In this document: positions 3,468 to 14,706 of the stretch, in pieces | Layout of the letters: every line of letters begins with the position of its first letter | Numbering within the stretch: the first letter of the stretch is position 1 | DNA from: Candidatus Iainarchaeum sp. | Lineage (GTDB): Archaea; Iainarchaeota; Iainarchaeia; JAADDC01 | Direction: 5' to 3' | NCBI GenBank assembly: GCA_015520865.1 | Contig: WAPE01000045.1 | Location: 1-28,245 of the forward strand | Length of the DNA: 28,245 nt | Made by a program: the position numbers and the translations under genes | Notes under the pieces: model-generated | The model's database searches: none | What the model saw: only the letters and a program-made list of their open reading frames with translations | Told to the model about the DNA's origin: nothing

Positions 3468-5706
3468 GGAGACCCCTCGCTATCGTTTCTCTACTCCAGG
3501 TCTCGAGCTCCTTCAGGAGCTTGTCCCAGTCGATCTCACCAAACTCCTCTAGGTGCTTTTCCTTTAGCAGTAAAAACCTGTTGTGGATGGGCACGTAGCT
3601 CTTTGCTTCTAGGAGCTCCGGAAGGTTCAGTTCATCGGCGAGCTTAACCACCATTTCCTTCTCTTTCGCCCTTGCGGCAATTTCCTTCCAGATCTCTTCG
3701 TATCCTATACCCCTTAGTCTCGAGATCTTTACCAATAGCTCGGAATTTCTTACGTTATCCTCGATGAGCTTTAGTTCATCCTCCTTTGCTGTATAAAGCA
3801 TGAGGTCTAGGAATCCTCCCTCCTGGTAGGGATCGCTCTTCCAGTGCTTCAGAACTTCCGTTATGGAAACCGTTCGCCGATGGCGCTTCAAAGAACCTGC
3901 AAAACGGATGGGAGCATTAACTACGATGATGTCCGTAGCCTTAAAGGACGTCGTCGGAACACCGAGGTCGTTTACTACCCTGTCCCAGACGGAGTAAGCT
4001 GAATCCCCGTGTATCGTACCCATAACGACGTTTCCAGCGGCTCCTACTCTCATAGCTTCATAAAGCACTAGGGCTTCCTTCGAACGCACTTCTCCTATCA
4101 CGATTGCCGAATCTCCGAGGCGAAGCGCCGTTCTTAGGGCATCCTCTGGAGGTAGCTCACCTGCAGAACCCCCTCCAATGGGGCTCTTCGTCTTCAGCCG
4201 TTGAATGTGGAACCCCACCTTTCGCATTTCTTCGACGGGGATTTCGAGGGTATCTTCCTGAACGATGATGCGCTGGTTCTGGGGGATTTCCAGCATTAAA
4301 GCCGTCATAAGGGATGTTTTTCCGGCTCCACGGCTTCCAGAGATGAGCATCGTTGCTTGCGAGTCTATGAAGAAGGAAAGGAGTCCAGCTGCCAACGGGT
4401 TAAGCATCTTTACCTTTACGAACTGCGGTAACGTCCAGGGGGTCGGTTTGTGAAGCCTGAAGGCAAATGCGATGCCGTCAGGAGAGAGGGGCGGTCCAAT
4501 GACAGCAACCCTCACGTGGAGGTCTGGAAGGTCGTAATCCAGAACGGGATGGGCCTCATCGAAGGGCCTCCCGCTCATGGAACGGAGTTTCGAAATAAAG
4601 GTCTTTGCCTCGTCCTCCGAGTAAACCACATTCGTCCTGCACTGACCGTACTGGGAATGTACAAGGTAAATAGGCTTCATTCCAAGGGGTGCATCGAGAT
4701 AAACGTCCGTTATCTTTCTGTCGAGGAAGAAGAGCTCCAGAACGCCGTATCCTACCGTGTACCTAGCTAAAATCTTTGATAGAAGCTCAATGTCTTCCTT
4801 CTCTAAACTCACCTTGAACCGTCGGGCCAAATCCATCACGGTGCTCTTGTACATTTCCTCAAACTGCTTCCTTGCGTAGGATTTTGAAGCTAGCAGGCTC
4901 CTGGCGGGGGTATATTTAGCAACGAGCTCCTTGGCCTTTTCCAAGATGAAGTACTGCTCCGGAGGGAGTGAAAACTCTGGAGCTTGAAGGTAGTAGAGCA
5001 TCTCAACGCTGGAGGGATCCTCATAGATGAGGACCTCCACATCTCCTTCGAGGGTATAGGAATCGACGAGCTCGAGCTCCTCCGGAAGCCCCGTAATAAT
5101 TCCCGATCCCAAAAAGGCGGGTTTCAGCTGGACAGGCAGTAAAATCCTGTAGATTCCCCTTCCTTCAGGGAGCTCCCTCGTTTGAAGAAGGTACTCCCTC
5201 GTCTTTGCTATGATCGTCGTGGCGTCCATAATCGTCTTGATCTTTTCCAGGATCTTCCTATACTTTTCGAAGCAGGGCTTAAATGCCTCCGGAGCGGCCT
5301 TCTCTCTTTCTTTTACGATCCTTAACTTCTTCAGAACCTCTAGATAGGCCTTGACAGGGTCGCTCATCCAGAGGTCGTGGGTCGTCTTTACTACCCATAC
5401 GTTTTCGTTCTTCAGAACCCTCTGGCAGGACTTTCCCAGCTTCTCCACGATGGAGAAGCTCCAGAATCCCTCATCCCTAAATACCTTAGCCGCCTTGGCG
5501 ATCTCCCTCAAGATACTCGTTGCTTTCTCGTCGTAGACGTGATCGTAAACGTCCGTTACGACAACGATGTCTGCATCGTTTTTCAATAGCTCCGAAACAA
5601 CCTTGAACATCGTTTCTGGATAATCTGCTACGGAGGCTCCCGTCGGCCAGTCCCGTGCATCTATGTAGAGAACCCTCTTACCACCAACAACCCTTACCTC
5701 TCCCAC
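3442..5706 (-). CDS. Type II/IV secretion (VirB11/PilB/TadA family) ATPase with long N-terminal extension
   Basis: Walker A SGSRGAGKTS, Asp box QEDTLE, Walker B IVIGEVR, His box MGTIHG. GTG start, TATA-like TTAAATA ending 21 nt upstream. Confidence 0.93.
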   Translation of the reverse strand: MGEVRVVGGKRVLYIDARDWPTGASVADYPETMFKVVSELLKNDADIVVVTDVYDHVYDEKATSILREIAKAAKVFRDEGFWSFSIVEKLGKSCQRVLKNENVWVVKTTHDLWMSDPVKAYLEVLKKLRIVKEREKAAPEAFKPCFEKYRKILEKIKTIMDATTIIAKTREYLLQTRELPEGRGIYRILLPVQLKPAFLGSGIITGLPEELELVDSYTLEGDVEVLIYEDPSSVEMLYYLQAPEFSLPPEQYFILEKAKELVAKYTPARSLLASKSYARKQFEEMYKSTVMDLARRFKVSLEKEDIELLSKILARYTVGYGVLELFFLDRKITDVYLDAPLGMKPIYLVHSQYGQCRTNVVYSEDEAKTFISKLRSMSGRPFDEAHPVLDYDLPDLHVRVAVIGPPLSPDGIAFAFRLHKPTPWTLPQFVKVKMLNPLAAGLLSFFIDSQATMLISGSRGAGKTSLMTALMLEIPQNQRIIVQEDTLEIPVEEMRKVGFHIQRLKTKSPIGGGSAGELPPEDALRTALRLGDSAIVIGEVRSKEALVLYEAMRVGAAGNVVMGTIHGDSAYSVWDRVVNDLGVPTTSFKATDIIVVNAPIRFAGSLKRHRRTVSITEVLKHWKSDPYQEGGFLDLMLYTAKEDELKLIEDNVRNSELLVKISRLRGIGYEEIWKEIAARAKEKEMVVKLADELNLPELLEAKSYVPIHNRFLLLKEKHLEEFGEIDWDKLLKELETWSRETIARGLLAEKGRNL

Positions 5707-8356: not shown

Positions 8357-8490
8357 GGGGCCGTGGCGCAGTCTGGCAGCGCGTCGGGCTCCAGAGTGTT
8401 CCTCTGGAGCGCAGAGGGCTTCCGATGAAGAACTTCGGGTCTGAACACGGAGAGACCCGAAGGTCCGGGGTTCGAATCCCCGCGGCCCCA
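8357..8490 (+). tRNA. trnW: tRNA-Trp(CCA) with 60-nt intron at 37/38; CCA end not encoded
   Basis: Acceptor stem GGGGCCG/CGGCCCC, D stem GCGC/GCGC, anticodon stem TCGGG/CCCGA, anticodon CCA at 8391-8393, T arm CGGGG-TTCGAAT-CCCCG. Intron 8395-8454 forms a canonical bulge-helix-bulge (CTCC/GGAG central helix, GTGTTC/GAACAC outer helix). Confidence 0.97.
8395..8454 (+). ncRNA. tRNA-Trp intron-encoded box C/D-like guide RNA
   Basis: CTCTGGAGC (8402-8410) complements the anticodon loop region and is followed by D'-like CAGA (8412-8415). C'-like ATGAAGA at 8425-8431. CTTCGGGT (8433-8440) complements positions 38-45 and is followed by CTGA (8441-8444). Guide introns in tRNA-Trp are established in euryarchaea. 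Confidence 0.75.
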
Positions 8491-8510: not shown

Positions 8511-11500
8511 TTAAGAACAGCCTAGACTACTCCAGTTAATTGCCCAGATAAGGGTATTATTGTTGTTAAGAGTCGGCTGATTAGACAAGTTTTGAATAAC
8601 CTGACTGGTACAGTTACTGTTGTTCGTCGGAGAAACGCAATGATTATTCTTACAGACACAGTCATTGCTGCTGCAGTTGCTACCACTGTTGTTACAACAA
8701 GCGTACCAGCCTAGGATCTCGTAATCATTCTTGTAATTTCCGTTGAGGAAAACACCGTAGATTTCGTTATCGTTGCTGTTATCCAGCAGGTTCTTTGTAA
8801 CGTCCTTTGGTTTCAACGCGGCTATAATAAGGTCGTCGTAGAGGTTGTTTTCCACAGCTTTCTTTACGAGTGTTAGGTATCGAGGTGATTGGTTACTATT
8901 ATTCAAATTAGAACACTTCCCGACAAGGTGGAGCACAACCTCGAGGATTCTTCCATTTTCTGTGGCCACGGATTCGGGTACGACGTTAGCTTCATAAAAA
9001 ACGCCAGGATATTTACAACCCTGATTATCAATATCGAAGACTATGTTGATGTCGAACCCGCCGTTTCCGGCGTTCTTGAAGTAGACGTAGTTATCTCCGA
9101 AGGTAACAAGGTTATCTTCCCTGTCTGGTAGCGTTGAAAGGTACGGCACAACAACCCAATTTAGCTTTAATCCGTATACAGTACCATCCGCCGGGTGGTT
9201 TTTTAGGAACTCATAATCAATAGATTTCTTTCCTGCATTACCCGTTGGCGACAGAAGGTTATTGGATGTAAGACTATTTATGTTGCAAGTCTGAACGTTC
9301 CCCGTAGTGGTTGAACACGCTTTGTCGGTAGCAACCTCCGCTATCAGGTAAGAAAGCTGATATAGGTCGCCGAGTTCTTTGTCAAAGGTATCATTCTTGA
9401 CGAAGAAACTCCCGACCCCTATGATCCTGCCGAGGGGAACCGGCTGGAAGTTTGATTCATTACCCTTACTCTCGTAGGAATAAAAACGGTTTAGATCGAG
9501 CGCTCTTACTAAGGGATCACTGGTTGATGAGTTGCTGCTCGCACAGGGATTGGGTATACCATTGCTCTGCGGGGGGCAGGAGGAAGAATTTTTGTAGCAG
9601 ATTGCAATATTACAGTTTTCAGATAGGTATATTCCGTTCTTTCTCAATACCTTTAGAAGGGCGAGGTAGAGTGGTTCCCAATCTTTATCGTTGCATTTTT
9701 TGTAGAGGTGCGCGACAAGATAATCATAGCAACTATTACTATTGCAGGAACTATCAATTTTAATCGGGCAGTTATTTGATAAATCGGCTGTGTTTGCGAG
9801 CATTATCCTCTTACTTGTAGAGGCAACTTCGATAGGACCGTCATAGACAATGAAATAAAAGGTAGGCTTGATGTTGTCGATAGGTCGCGTTATAGTTATT
9901 GTATCCCACGTCACCTTTGTCTCGCTCGCCTTGTTTGATCTTTTTTCAGCGACCCATTTATAACCTAATTCAACCAGGATTCGGAACGTGCTATCTTCCC
10001 TGAACTGGCAGAAAGTTTCTTCCTCTTTGTTTATAGACATTGTAGGATCTGCTTTGAGAAGGTAATCCTGAATTCCGAGCTTGGGTTTTAAGGTTATATA
10101 CGGGCCACAGAGGTTGTATGCGGAAAGATTATGGGAAAAGATCTGACGGAATACCTCTTTTCCGAAAACACCTACGGGAAAAGAAACCTTTATACCGTAG
10201 GAATAATCCTCCGGAATGATAACGGGGGTTTGTATACTAGCTGTAACACTGAAATTTACTTCGTCTCCAGGTTCTAGGTTTATATCCTCAAGATCTTCTG
10301 GGAAAAGAAAAGAGATCTTATTCTCCTCTTCGGGGGAATTATACAATGGTTGTAGCTTTAGCTCTGAAAGATAGAGGGGTACAACGAGGTCGCTGCAATT
10401 ATTTTTTATGTCAAATATGTCTGTTATGACGAACTTTCCGTTCCCAGCAGAGGGACCTTCTACCTTTCTTTTTATATAAAGGCACTTAGCAAATAGGCCG
10501 TATTGAATATAGAAAGGTACATAGGTTTTGCCCAATGGGATACCGTCAAGCAATACTAATGCGTCTATCTCTTCTCTCCTACCCATACCTAGGCAGGCGT
10601 CGGAGTTCCAGTTAAAAACTGCTGTCTTCCCATTTATTTCGACCCTTAGACCACACCCATTTTGATACCGGGCTGACAAACTTATATGGCCCGGTAGCGG
10701 ACCTTTTATGACCAAAGTCCGCTTTACTTTTTTACCCTTTTCAAGGATCACATAGGGATCTACCGGATACACATTAATGTCTTCTGCTGTGATCGCCTTT
10801 CTACCATCAAAGGCATCCTCATATCCAACGGCAGAAGCAACAATGTTTAACTCCATACAATCTTCGTAGAAGGATAGTATTCCCTTCGTTTGACCCGACG
10901 TCGACGCCAAGAGCTTCCCGTCACAGTAGACCGTTAAGGAAACGGGAGTTTCAGGATCGTTTAGATCCATATCGTAAACCCTGTACTCCACCTTCAGCTT
11001 TCTCTTCCTTACGAACCAGCCTGGTGGATAAACGATATTTGTTTCTGCGTCTATGACGTTGAGGTCCATAAAGAGCGGACCGAAGTGGGGCGTGTAAACG
11101 GACCAGGTACCAAGATAGTCCTTCTCTATCACCCTTTTTCCAGCCTTTGCAATAAGGTAGAAGTCCAAGGATTCTTCGTCCAGCGGATAGAAGTTTGCCT
11201 CAATCTTGTAAACCTTCCCTTTCTCTACCTTTCCTGAATAGGTTCCGAGGATCTCCTCCCTACCATTTGAGTGTTGCATAACGAGCATAACGTTGACCTC
11301 GTCTTCCAAGCTTCCCCTGAAGGCGACCTTCGCGGTATAACTATTCAACGCGTTGAGGGTTTCGCCAGGGCCGACTTCTACCCCATTTTCATCGAAGATG
11401 GAGAAGATATAACAGAGGTAATCTCCGCAGGTGAACTCCTTTCCGACGGGGAGGACGACGCTGTAGCTGTTTCCCTCCATTGCGTAGGTAAACGTCGCAA

Positions 11501-13544
11501 TGTTGTCCGGATATCCTAGATCAACGTGAATCTTTATCCTTACGTTCTTCACAGAGAAGGCTCGTGAGGAGAGCGTGATAGTCGCCCCGTGCTCCCCTAT
11601 TTCGCCCTCTGGATCTGTCCAGACAACAGACATTCCATCCGGAATGAAGAGGTTGAAATCAACCATTCCCCTAAAGCCTACCTCGAAGTTTAGAATGTAA
11701 TCCTTCCCTGGCTGGAGGGATCCGACCTTCTTTCCGTCGGTGGATTTCACTCCGATGAACTTCACGTAGTCCTTCGTCTTTTCTGGGAAGTTTACCTCTA
11801 GGGTATAGCTATCAACGGAAGGAACGGCGTAGGGGCCTGCTTCGATTATTACGCCTCCGTAGTTGACGTCAACAACGACTCCGATAAGGGGAGGAACATC
11901 GATCTGAAACGTTCCATCGAGGCCCGTCATCCCGTTCCCAAGCTTGTACCCCCTCTCGTCATAAACGGTAACGATGGCCCCTGGCAGGGGCTTTCCACCT
12001 CGCTCAACGAGGATCGTGAGCGATACCTTCTGCTGGGCGAAATAGATAGGTACAACAACGGTGTTGTTTTCCGTGACGTTGAACTCGTCTGAAGAGGCAA
12101 CGGTTGAGAGGAACTCCGCTACAGCGGTGTAGCTTCCCACCGGAACTCCCTTGAAGGTTACTTCGCCCTTGACGTCGGTTGTTCCCTTGAAGCCCGTGTC
12201 GTTTCCAGAATCATCGACGAGATAAACCGTCGCGTTGGGTAGTGGATCATTTGTTGGACTGTAAACAACGACCTTCACGTTACCCCTCTTTATAACCCTC
12301 ACGAGACTTACCGTCTTTGATTCTCCGGTGCAGATCTTCCCCGAGTTGGACTCGTAGTTCTTAGCTGTCACGGTATAGGTTCCACAACCCTCCCCAGAGA
12401 GCTCTATGGTTGCCTTTCCGTTCTTCGCAGTTCGCTCTATCTTCTGTCCATTGAACGATAGAACGATCCTCGCCCCGTCGATGAGCTCCCCGGTATTAGC
12501 ATCCCTAACGGTGAACGAAACGCTGAATAGCTCCTTGGGTGTCTTGAGAACGAGATCAACGATCTGTGTATCCTGCAGAACCGTGAAGGGGGAGCCATCG
12601 ACGACTTCAGTAGCCACGTAGTGGTTGTTTAGCAGGACCTGAGCCGAGACGACCCGATAGGTTCCAATAGCCAGCCTTAAGGGAGTAGAAGCCCCTGCCC
12701 TGATCCTCACAGGTGTTCCGGTTCCAGGAGAGTTTACCGGGGCAATGTAGATCATTCCGTCGACGGGCTTGTCTATCTCGTCATAGGAGGCTTTTATGGT
12801 AACCGTCGCGAACCTCTGAGCCTCTACGACCTCTTCCTTCTTGGAAGAAGCCTTCACAAGGGTCAGTGTAATAAGGCTGGGTAGATCGGTGAGGGAGTAG
12901 CTCACGGTTTTCGTGCCATAGCCCTCCTTCGACGCTTCAAAAGTTATCTTAGAACCTGGTGACGCGAGGATGCAGCCCTTTGCCTTGACCTCGGTGAAGC
13001 ACACTTCAAAGTTACTTCCGCTGTCCGAAAATACCTCGGTACCATCTACAGAGATCGTCAGATGAGCATCCAAGGGAGCTCCATCTTGATCGACAATCTT
13101 CACCTTCGTGAAGTAGCGCTTGGGTTCGAGGATGATGTACGTCGCCTCTTCCTCCTTTCTCACGTTGCTAAACTGGTAACCCTCGTAGATGGCCCCCCTG
13201 AAGAGAACCTCTCTCCCTTCTATGACGATCTTTCCCTCGCTGTCGGTCGTAAAGACCTTCTTCACACCATCGACGACAAAGGTAGCCTTTACGCCTACCA
13301 GCGGGTTTCCGAGGGCGTCGGTGAAGTAGAAGATGTGGGTAGGAACCATAAACGCCGAATACAGCCACCATCCAAGGGCCAAAAGGACGGCAATTGTTAT
13401 CCCGGAGAAGAGGTAGAAGGTGTTGATTCCGTGGGATTCCAAGGGTCCTACGATCTTGTCTACCGGAATCCCTCGAGCCATGAGGCTGTCTAGGAAGGAG
13501 TAGTACGCATCCTCCAGCCGCTCGAGCAGCCCTTTAAGGTCCAT
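8511..13544 (-). CDS. Large (1677 aa) membrane-anchored surface protein with carboxypeptidase-regulatory-like/Ig-like repeats and an Asn/Cys-rich C-terminus
   Basis: Short N-terminal helical region, one TM (FYLFSGITIAVLLALGWWLYSAFMV), about six repeats starting with a D-x-x-G-x-P-L/V-like motif, and many N-x-S/T sequons. TTTATA 24 nt upstream of the ATG. Confidence 0.85.
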   Translation of the reverse strand: MDLKGLLERLEDAYYSFLDSLMARGIPVDKIVGPLESHGINTFYLFSGITIAVLLALGWWLYSAFMVPTHIFYFTDALGNPLVGVKATFVVDGVKKVFTTDSEGKIVIEGREVLFRGAIYEGYQFSNVRKEEEATYIILEPKRYFTKVKIVDQDGAPLDAHLTISVDGTEVFSDSGSNFEVCFTEVKAKGCILASPGSKITFEASKEGYGTKTVSYSLTDLPSLITLTLVKASSKKEEVVEAQRFATVTIKASYDEIDKPVDGMIYIAPVNSPGTGTPVRIRAGASTPLRLAIGTYRVVSAQVLLNNHYVATEVVDGSPFTVLQDTQIVDLVLKTPKELFSVSFTVRDANTGELIDGARIVLSFNGQKIERTAKNGKATIELSGEGCGTYTVTAKNYESNSGKICTGESKTVSLVRVIKRGNVKVVVYSPTNDPLPNATVYLVDDSGNDTGFKGTTDVKGEVTFKGVPVGSYTAVAEFLSTVASSDEFNVTENNTVVVPIYFAQQKVSLTILVERGGKPLPGAIVTVYDERGYKLGNGMTGLDGTFQIDVPPLIGVVVDVNYGGVIIEAGPYAVPSVDSYTLEVNFPEKTKDYVKFIGVKSTDGKKVGSLQPGKDYILNFEVGFRGMVDFNLFIPDGMSVVWTDPEGEIGEHGATITLSSRAFSVKNVRIKIHVDLGYPDNIATFTYAMEGNSYSVVLPVGKEFTCGDYLCYIFSIFDENGVEVGPGETLNALNSYTAKVAFRGSLEDEVNVMLVMQHSNGREEILGTYSGKVEKGKVYKIEANFYPLDEESLDFYLIAKAGKRVIEKDYLGTWSVYTPHFGPLFMDLNVIDAETNIVYPPGWFVRKRKLKVEYRVYDMDLNDPETPVSLTVYCDGKLLASTSGQTKGILSFYEDCMELNIVASAVGYEDAFDGRKAITAEDINVYPVDPYVILEKGKKVKRTLVIKGPLPGHISLSARYQNGCGLRVEINGKTAVFNWNSDACLGMGRREEIDALVLLDGIPLGKTYVPFYIQYGLFAKCLYIKRKVEGPSAGNGKFVITDIFDIKNNCSDLVVPLYLSELKLQPLYNSPEEENKISFLFPEDLEDINLEPGDEVNFSVTASIQTPVIIPEDYSYGIKVSFPVGVFGKEVFRQIFSHNLSAYNLCGPYITLKPKLGIQDYLLKADPTMSINKEEETFCQFREDSTFRILVELGYKWVAEKRSNKASETKVTWDTITITRPIDNIKPTFYFIVYDGPIEVASTSKRIMLANTADLSNNCPIKIDSSCNSNSCYDYLVAHLYKKCNDKDWEPLYLALLKVLRKNGIYLSENCNIAICYKNSSSCPPQSNGIPNPCASSNSSTSDPLVRALDLNRFYSYESKGNESNFQPVPLGRIIGVGSFFVKNDTFDKELGDLYQLSYLIAEVATDKACSTTTGNVQTCNINSLTSNNLLSPTGNAGKKSIDYEFLKNHPADGTVYGLKLNWVVVPYLSTLPDREDNLVTFGDNYVYFKNAGNGGFDINIVFDIDNQGCKYPGVFYEANVVPESVATENGRILEVVLHLVGKCSNLNNSNQSPRYLTLVKKAVENNLYDDLIIAALKPKDVTKNLLDNSNDNEIYGVFLNGNYKNDYEILGWYACCNNSGSNCSSNDCVCKNNHCVSPTNNSNCTSQVIQNLSNQPTLNNNNTLIWAINWSSLGCS

Positions 13545-13579
13545 TCGCTTAATATAACCTTTCTTCCCTATAAAAAGTT

Positions 13580-13635
13580 AGCGATGATGAGTGAATGGGC
13601 AGACCGACCGGTGAGGAGAAGGAGGTGAGCTGAGC
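13580..13635 (+). ncRNA. Box C/D small RNA (2'-O-methylation guide)
   Basis: Box C ATGATGA 13584-13590; 13-nt guide; D' CCGA 13604-13607; 3-nt spacer; C' GTGAGGA 13611-13617; 12-nt guide; box D CTGA 13630-13633. Canonical order and spacing, 50 nt from C to D. TATA-like TTAATATA at 13549-13556. Exact ends are uncertain. Confidence 0.8.
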
Positions 13636-14706
13636 ATATTCGCTGTTACCGTCGTCGGGGGAGGTATCGGCTCCTTTATCGCTAAAAGGCTTTCCGAGAT
13701 GGGATGGAAGGTAGAGCTCTACGAGAAAAACCCAAATAGACATGTAACCTGCGGAGGTCTTGTTAGTAACGACACACTCCTAGATTTCCCGTTCCTCGAA
13801 GAGTATGTCATCAACCGTATCGACGGCGCGATTATATCGGCGGGAGAAGAATCTATAACCGTCGAGCGGCGTGGGGTGGCCTGGGTTCTCAACAGGGATG
13901 AAATGTTTAGAGGTATGATCGAATCGGCGGTTTCCAGTGGCGTGGAGGTAAAGGAAGAGGTGTGGACGCCAGAAAAAGGTTCTGGAAGGGTTTTGGTGGG
14001 AGCCGATGGAGCGCTTTCTTCCGTAAGGAGCTTGGTAACGTCGGAAAACCCCACCTACATCCTTGGTTATCAGGGAATTGCCCGCTGGAAGGAGGACGAT
14101 CACCTTGTTAGGGTAGATTTTGGCGAATGGGGCCCAAACTTCTTTGGATGGGTTATTCCATTGGGAGACGGAGCCGCCCACGTCGGAGTCGGAGTTCCCC
14201 TTGAAAGATCCGGGCTAGCCCATCAACTCCTTCTTAAGTATGCCAACTACCTCGGTGTTGAGGTCAAAAAAGAAGAAGGGCGACTTATTCCGGTATCCAG
14301 GCCGTTGAAGATGGTCGCCCGAGGCAACACTCTTTTAATAGGCGATGCAGCGGTCCACGTGAAAGCATCAACCGGTGGAGGATTGGCATACGGGCTTAAA
14401 GGAGCAGCAACTGCCGCAGAGGTTATAAACCGTTTTCTCGGGGACGAAGGAAAGCTAGAAGAGTATAATACCGTCCACAGAAAGCACTTTCTACCGAAAC
14501 TAAAGCTCCACTGGTTCATTCACAGGTTCTACAACGAGGCAGACCTTCCTAATTTACTTAAACAGCTTCAGGAGGGTGGTTTGGTCGAGGAGTTATCGAA
14601 AAAGGGCTCTATGGACGATCCTTCCTTCTTCCTCTCACTGCGCTTCCTTCCTCTTATCTTCCGAACCTTCGGTCCCTTCGTGAGAACTCTTCCAGAACTG
14701 CTCTAA
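13636..14706 (+). CDS. Geranylgeranyl reductase family flavoprotein (DGGGPL reductase-like), probable non-canonical start
   Basis: TCGGLVS, GADGALS, FFGWVIP and IGDAAVHVKASTGGGLAYG motifs. The frame extends upstream of ATG 13699 to include the FAD-binding strand FAVTVVGGGIGS, but an in-frame TGA at 13612 leaves only CTG 13630 or ATA 13636 as candidate starts. Confidence 0.8.
   Translation: MFAVTVVGGGIGSFIAKRLSEMGWKVELYEKNPNRHVTCGGLVSNDTLLDFPFLEEYVINRIDGAIISAGEESITVERRGVAWVLNRDEMFRGMIESAVSSGVEVKEEVWTPEKGSGRVLVGADGALSSVRSLVTSENPTYILGYQGIARWKEDDHLVRVDFGEWGPNFFGWVIPLGDGAAHVGVGVPLERSGLAHQLLLKYANYLGVEVKKEEGRLIPVSRPLKMVARGNTLLIGDAAVHVKASTGGGLAYGLKGAATAAEVINRFLGDEGKLEEYNTVHRKHFLPKLKLHWFIHRFYNEADLPNLLKQLQEGGLVEELSKKGSMDDPSFFLSLRFLPLIFRTFGPFVRTLPELL

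Follow-up and report, generated by a model that had tools for sequence, protein, structure and literature searches.

The DNA analysed here (the window, 28,245 nt) is contig C45 of a Candidatus Iainarchaeum genome, G000, whose assembly comprises 600 kb in 115 contigs, is ~79% complete and has a G+C content of 49.7%. On its plus strand lies a 56-nt element with the layout of a box C/D sRNA (13580–13635), immediately followed on the same strand by an ORF for a flavoprotein of the geranylgeranyl reductase (GGR) family (13636–14706), and the minus strand upstream carries a divergent gene for a surface protein of 1677 aa (8511–13544; Pfam Big_1 and CarboxypepD_reg), which bounds the promoter region. 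The locus was compared across the six genomes of the genus, the sister genus and the 14 genomes of the family, and the search was widened to one genome of a sister family (G014) and 105 other genomes of the class. A search for related loci returned a single relative, of the same genus, labelled as a Candidatus Micrarchaeota MAG. Among public data, the DNA is represented only by a hydrothermal vent metagenome, from which the contig probably derives.

The sRNA begins with AGCG, of which the GC pairs with the 3' GC in a terminal stem of 2 bp, and continues with box C (AUGAUGA, ATGATGA in the DNA; 13584–13590), which is invariant in all 13 aligned copies. Next come a 13-nt D' guide (GTGAATGGGCAGA; 13591–13603), with C1402 of 16S rRNA as its predicted target, a variant box D' (CCGA; 13604–13607), a 3-nt linker, CCG, read from the sequence between 13607 and 13611, and a variant box C' (GUGAGGA; 13611–13617), whose UGA at 13612 is the in-frame stop closing the reductase frame upstream. 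The 12-nt D guide (GAAGGAGGTGAG; 13618–13629) pairs with the 16S 3' end and is at the same time the only Shine-Dalgarno (SD)-like sequence before the ORF; it leads into an invariant box D (CUGA; 13630–13633), whose CUG is in frame with the reductase, and then GC. In the window, D' and C' are each one base off consensus (U to C and U to G, respectively), and the guide spacers of 13 nt (D') and 12 nt (D) are close to the ~12 nt typical of archaeal box C/D guides.

A covariance model (R1) built from the six genus copies scores 84.7 bits at this site and found one strong orthologue (64–85 bits) per genome in 12 of the 14 family genomes, with no copy in the 105 other genomes of the class. The terminal GC/GC stem, box C and box D are invariant in the 12 strong copies. 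Within the genus, the sRNA columns are 88% identical, whereas identity falls to 46–69% in the adjoining protein and the promoter flank defies alignment. The internal boxes are canonical in the sister genus (CUGA and GUGAUGA) and eroded in one genome of the set, G004 (CCGC and AUGGGGA), and the facing K-loop positions, position 2 of D' and position 5 of C', change together, being U.U in 8 genomes and C-G in 5 across the 13 copies. Conservation together with this co-variation marks the sRNA as a real RNA under selection. The initial annotation had proposed a box C/D sRNA with all four boxes at this site and had pointed to the conservation of the boxes in relatives as a check; the boxes, read directly, and the orthologues bear the proposal out, the boxes keeping their register in 13 copies. 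We are thus highly confident that 13580–13635 is a genuine box C/D sRNA. G000 also encodes fibrillarin, Nop5 and L7Ae (matches of 274, 241 and 82.5 bits across the three proteins).

Taken alone, the window sRNA is an unremarkable addition to a known class. With E up to 10, the stretch had 12 listed Rfam matches, all to box C/D families and all below the gathering score, so that the sRNA belongs to no curated Rfam family. The best of them was a full-length match to sR1 (RF01152; 34 bits, E 3e-7 for 301 nt, gathering score 45), of which the window RNA is a non-member, the likeness residing chiefly in the boxes and their spacing. At gathering thresholds, Rfam returned tRNA alone and no C/D family across the window; the tRNA match, at 8357–8490 (134 nt, 55.9 bits), has a length that could accommodate an intron. 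The leader folded no better than shuffled sequence (z −0.7 to +0.5), and a significant fold is not expected of a C/D RNA.

A strict box C/D pattern search of G000 gave eight more candidates. A box C/D-like pattern with the D' spacer AGGAGGUGAACG was also noticed on the minus strand of G000:C12, near 5571–5623 of the reverse complement and within a 168-codon open frame, where it may be due to chance. A second sRNA candidate, on the minus strand of the same genome (G000:C92:2839-2893; L050:1501-1555), has the same internal CCGA and GUGAGGA variant, and the ATG of an unrelated 145-aa ORF with multiple TM segments lies 10 nt after its box D, so that this candidate, too, would occupy a 5' leader.

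Targets of the two guides were assigned by the N+5 rule and are given in E. coli 16S numbering. The 16S rRNA ends in GGAUCACCUCCU followed by UUGG, and the D guide (GAAGGAGGUGAG) matches residues 1532–1542, the anti-Shine-Dalgarno sequence, with 10 Watson-Crick pairs and one G.U pair, which places C1535 at N+5. This pairing was equalled by 25 of 5000 shuffled guides. The D guide is to be regarded primarily as an rRNA guide against the anti-SD. Methylation of C1535 is not documented in the literature; Cm1533 is known from I. hospitalis and Am1534 from N. equitans.

For the D' guide, the initial annotation had reported no identifiable target. This no longer holds, as a search of the rRNAs and tRNAs of the kind it had proposed located 16S 1399–1406 and yielded no tRNA match of at least 7 bp. 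The core of the guide, GGGCAG, is invariant in the 12 strong copies, and its complement CUGCCC is present once in 16S rRNA, at 1399–1404, with C1402 at N+5. In G000 the duplex with 1399–1406 amounts to 8 bp (7 Watson-Crick and one G.U), a pairing reached by 1859 of 5000 shuffled guides (37%) and thus not significant alone; it extends to 9 Watson-Crick bp in G001, G011 and G012 and is 7 bp in G003. Position 8 of the guide is C or U, either of which pairs with G1405, and the six family 16S sequences do not differ at the target site (ACACACUGCCCGUCAAG). Support for C1402 therefore comes from the conservation of the D' guide and the better matches in relatives, not from the G000 match alone, and we consider it a plausible target. 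The two targets are 133 nt apart in the 16S 3' minor domain.

Two other candidate targets of the D' guide were rejected. One, in 23S rRNA (CCGACCCGUUCAG near the 3' end, with 8–9 bp in the sister genus), would place the target base at the end of the duplex, and the site reads CCGACCGCCUCAG in G003; the other, an 11-bp match in contig C8 of G000, lies inside a 401-aa ORF and has no Rfam match. The 23S rRNA match of G003 (L073, G003:C11:18340-22052) is itself 3713 nt long vs. ~2992 nt in three sister-genus genomes, which suggests an insertion or intron of ~720 nt.

Judged by its published targets, the closest known RNA is sR13 of Nanoarchaeum equitans, a DPANN archaeon with a small genome; this sRNA, too, has two guides, and Am1408 and Am1534 have been measured for it (Seistrup et al. 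2017, PMC5389701). Helix 44 is the partner of its D' guide, in the decoding region (1405–1415, A1408), and the anti-SD at 1531–1540 that of its D guide (PMC5389701). The D guides of both RNAs would thus address the anti-SD tail (1531–1540 in sR13 and 1532–1541 here), whereas the D' guide of the window sRNA pairs with 1399–1406 and would act on C1402, in the neighbouring segment and not at the A1408 site. Cm1402 has been detected in N. equitans and no guide for it was found (PMC5389701); the window sRNA offers a candidate guide for this modification. For such double guides, Dennis et al. (2015) relax the 9-bp rule (PMC4644070), and the authors of the sR13 work propose a role in timing the folding of the 16S 3' end (PMC5389701; PMC4644070). 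For Neq sR13, a position in the leader of a protein gene is not described, whereas the window sRNA abuts the reductase ORF.

PF00398 (RsmA/Dim1, KsgA) gave weak matches only in the 14 family genomes, the best at 42 bits. In G000:C13 (L075:372-1067) and family-wide, an ORF of 231–250 aa matches the C-terminal half of TIGR00755 (36 bits, cut-off 171), and in the sister genus a TIGR00755-like ORF is found ~3 kb upstream of the sRNA. These weak matches recall N. equitans, which has sR13 and is without RsmA, the proposed rationale for sR13.

The protein encoded downstream of the sRNA matches TIGR02032 with 134 bits (E 8e-39), under the cut-off of 158.8, and the profile aligns from residue 4; judged by this match, it is a divergent paralogue of the GGR family, and each relative carries a second GGR-like ORF of ~400 aa. 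Its dinucleotide-binding motif (13651–13668; glycine motif VVGGGIGS) conforms to GGxhG[S/A] in all six genus members and lacks one residue relative to the sister-genus motif GxGxxG (GAGPAG). The frame is open for 346–364 codons in relatives, at 46–59% identity. Between the TGA at 13612 and this glycine motif there is no ATG, GTG or TTG, and the first ATG, at 13699, lies past the motif. From 13636 to 13699, residues are kept across six genomes with many changes confined to synonymous third positions, and since the motif is conserved and TIGR02032 aligns from residue 4, the stretch before ATG 13699 is coding.

Consequently, the two candidates for the start are the non-canonical codons ATA 13636 and CTG 13630. 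The order in the genus is CUGA, GC and then directly ATA, ATT or ATC; one of these three occupies the position of 13636 in five of the six genomes, with TTT in G004, where the open reductase frame reaches back to a GTG within the D' guide. A CTG is in frame in all six and coincides with the CUG of box D in five. With the SD base opposite C1535 as the anchor, the distance to the start codon peaks sharply at 7 nt genome-wide, with a range of 7–10 nt. ATA 13636 lies 10 nt after this anchor, within the range, and CTG lies outside it at 4 nt, so that spacing favours ATA; the variation among ATA, ATT and ATC could equally well be that of a drifting internal Ile codon. The SD 5-mer precedes ~21% of first starts in G000 against a background of 9.6%, from which it follows that SD-led initiation is used in this organism, although it is not the rule. 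The putative SD sequence of the reductase leader is AAGGAGGTGA. A uORF or frameshift starting from the ATGs of box C was rejected: that frame ends at TGA 13626 in G000, and a 1-nt insertion in G001 changes it relative to the reductase, so that neither a conserved uORF peptide nor a conserved shift is present.

Upstream of the sRNA, two TATA-like boxes occupy the space left by the divergent gene. The distal box (TTAATATAA; 13549–13557, plus strand) ends 23 nt before 13580, which agrees with the initial annotation in placing the sRNA behind a TATA-like box, and is the likely promoter of the sRNA/reductase transcript. An AT-rich box is found at −32 to −22 from the sRNA in all six genus genomes and at approximately −30 to −20 in most sister-genus copies. 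The proximal box (TATAAAAA; 13569–13576, minus strand) is most plausibly the promoter of the giant divergent gene, in leaderless geometry: it lies 26–29 nt from the divergent start codon, and most sister-genus copies, whose upstream gene runs in the same direction, lack it. In six of six genus genomes, the start of the minus-strand ORF falls at −32 to −37 from the sRNA 5' end, for which reason our first reading of the two boxes, as nested plus-strand promoters, was demoted. The gap (13545–13579 in the window, and its counterpart at L035-L038 and L044) measures 31–36 nt in these genomes and holds just two TATA-like boxes, one placed for each direction; it is most simply read as two divergent promoters that cross, each box lying at promoter distance from the gene beyond the other one.

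In the genus, sRNA and ORF have no T-tract between them, and the five other genus genomes likewise carry the sRNA ahead of their reductase orthologue. One transcript comprising both sRNA and mRNA is the simplest reading of this arrangement. With no promoter at its disposal other than that of the sRNA, the reductase gene very likely has the sRNA as its obligatory 5' leader in this genus, an inference drawn from gene order and TATA boxes. The initial annotation had placed the sRNA in the reductase leader, ending 2 nt before the likely start, and had suggested that one transcript could act as guide RNA or as mRNA. The distance is correct, box D ending 2 nt before ATA 13636, and a shared transcript is made likely by the adjacency, the promoter layout and the missing T-tract.

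The sister genus presents the same RNA in another setting. There, an sRNA with the same two guides forms a stand-alone gene with a TATA box at approximately −28 to −21, followed in most copies by a short T-rich run; in four of six copies, a separate TATA box, an GAGGUGAU SD and the ATG of pilin-like genes come next, and the reductase, with a GTG start, is located 0.5–1.5 kb farther on. In G009 (L042:1603-3020), three tandem paralogues with class III signal peptides (pilin or archaellin-like) stand between sRNA and reductase, each with its own GAGGUGAU SD. As the D guide can still pair with the 16S tail in the stand-alone copies, its complementarity is independent of the following ORF, and the guide is older than any role as a ribosome-binding site. 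The initial annotation has to be corrected in this respect: the D guide, which in the genus of the window occupies the position of an SD, serves primarily rRNA and is unchanged in the stand-alone copies.

C/D sRNPs assemble on the C/D and C'/D' k-turns via L7Ae, Nop5 and fibrillarin, and both guides are used. We propose that the window sRNA, together with these three proteins, would direct 2'-O-methylation of 16S rRNA at C1402 (D') and C1535 (D), and that it may also hold the two nearby segments of the 16S 3' domain during subunit assembly. Guiding rRNA modification would be the ancestral job, with the sister genus keeping the RNA as a stand-alone gene. In the genus of the window, where the sRNA abuts the GGR-family gene, the D guide would sit where the SD of this gene belongs, and the reductase would be translated from a non-canonical codon. 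Box C and box D bracket the SD and the candidate start codons, and the k-turn strands adjoin the SD in the presumed leader; on one transcript, assembly of the sRNP, in which boxes C and D would be engaged along with the two guides, and binding of the 30S subunit to the SD would then exclude each other. The sequences directly show how the RNA is built and conserved, what it is complementary to, how the genes are ordered and that a canonical start is missing; from these we infer the layout of the transcript, the service of the guide as an SD, the choice of start codon and the mutual exclusion. Guide and SD demand the same sequence, whereby any conflict between guide function and coding or expression vanishes. 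Taken together, we think it probable, with ample room for doubt, that an sR13-like double guide also serves as the obligatory leader and SD of the reductase gene. Stronger forms of this reading, in which the anti-SD guide was co-opted as the SD of the next gene, so that the mRNA is born as a guide precursor and assembly of the sRNP gates its translation, seem to us unlikely, and it is to the same low degree that we credit the gene with having given up its own promoter and canonical start codon in the course of such co-option.

Sense overlap of this kind has been described before. In Pyrobaculum, C/D sRNA genes overlap the 5' ends of ORFs in sense, and Lui et al. (2018) raise both excision of the sRNA and assembly of L7Ae, Nop5 and fibrillarin blocking initiation as outcomes (PMC6009581); the idea of a blocked leader is therefore not new, having already been speculated upon for that genus. 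The two cases share a same-strand sRNA at the start of a protein gene. They differ in that 88% of the Pyrobaculum guides overlapping a 5' ORF end are without an rRNA or tRNA target (PMC6009581), whereas the abutting guide of the window keeps its target, because the functions of guide and SD both need the complement of the 16S 3' end. A k-turn beside the SD is likewise found in the 5' UTR of l7ae in Sulfolobus, where the SD is covered and translation drops once L7Ae is bound (Daume et al. 2017, PMC5539422; Huang et al. 2019, PMC6298567). The l7ae element is a plain k-turn hairpin whose regulation was demonstrated by experiment, whereas the leader considered here would itself be a complete, functional guide sRNA.

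Several other explanations of the locus have to be weighed against a double guide that also serves as leader and SD. If there were no sRNA at all, an SD-containing leader would resemble a box C/D RNA by chance, which would agree with a score under the gathering threshold of every Rfam family and with a D guide indistinguishable from a strong SD. This is extremely unlikely given that both guides are kept in a genus where no ORF follows, that the boxes are in register in 13 copies with co-variation at the K-loop, that the 5' end follows a TATA box at a distance of 23 nt, and that the RNA has no significant fold, as is the case for C/D RNA. Only slightly more credible, and still very improbable, is that the reductase is losing its N-terminus in this genus, being started at ATG 13699 or silent, in which case its adjacency to the sRNA would be functionless. 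While the lack of a canonical start codon, a GGxxG[S/A] motif with one residue fewer than the sister-genus GxGxxG and a family score below cut-off would be expected of such decay, it is contradicted by the conservation of 13636–13699 with synonymous third-position changes in six genomes, by GGxhG[S/A] in six of six with a frame open for 346–364 codons, and by the alignment of the TIGR02032 profile from residue 4.

Two further readings accept both the sRNA and the coding capacity of the ORF, and we judge each of them quite unlikely. The proximal box may also fire in the plus direction, producing an mRNA from ~13599 and leaving the distal promoter to the sRNA only; without box C, this mRNA would have no terminal k-turn and would be freely translated from its SD. 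Archaeal TATA boxes are nearly symmetric, the proximal AT-rich box is present in six of six genus genomes, and a start near 13599 would leave a leader of 30–37 nt with the SD exposed, but the conservation of this box is already accounted for by its leaderless-promoter distance to the divergent ORF, again in all six. The model of the initial annotation, in turn, was that of a tuned riboregulator, in which the supply of L7Ae, Nop5 and fibrillarin decides between RNP and mRNA and thereby couples lipid saturation to ribosome biogenesis. The shared-transcript geometry, the position of the SD and a candidate start between box C and box D, the retention of the arrangement in six of six genus genomes and the experimentally shown repression by L7Ae via leader k-turns in Sulfolobus (PMC5539422) all fit this model. 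Yet the rRNA target alone explains the guide sequence, which the stand-alone copies keep, and nothing ties the need for reductase to the supply of RNP. A role in lipid saturation is, moreover, not established for a protein below the family cut-off and with a shortened glycine motif, each relative has a second GGR-like ORF of ~400 aa, and the second sRNA located 10 nt before an unrelated membrane-protein ORF suggests that genome compaction is a sufficient cause of the arrangement.

If the dual role of the sRNA as guide and gating leader is true, the locus would represent a natural L7Ae/k-turn switch made from a complete and still functional sRNA. It would then provide a test case for the fate of mRNAs with a 5' sense C/D sRNA, be it excision, repression or both, and for effects of anti-SD guides beyond rRNA methylation. 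It would also add an archaeal example of conserved translation initiation at a non-canonical codon.

A weak orthologue of the sRNA (27 bits) was also seen in the sister-family genome G014 (L046:1501-1560, G014:C33). It was left out of the inference of the ancestral state because the adjoining 273-aa protein is not recognisably a reductase, having no NCBIfam family and a reductase match at E 0.003 over 60 residues only. Its box D overlaps the ATG of this GxGxxG protein (CUGAUG), and the D guide, UUAGGAGGUAUU, stands at the modal SD spacing of 7 nt.
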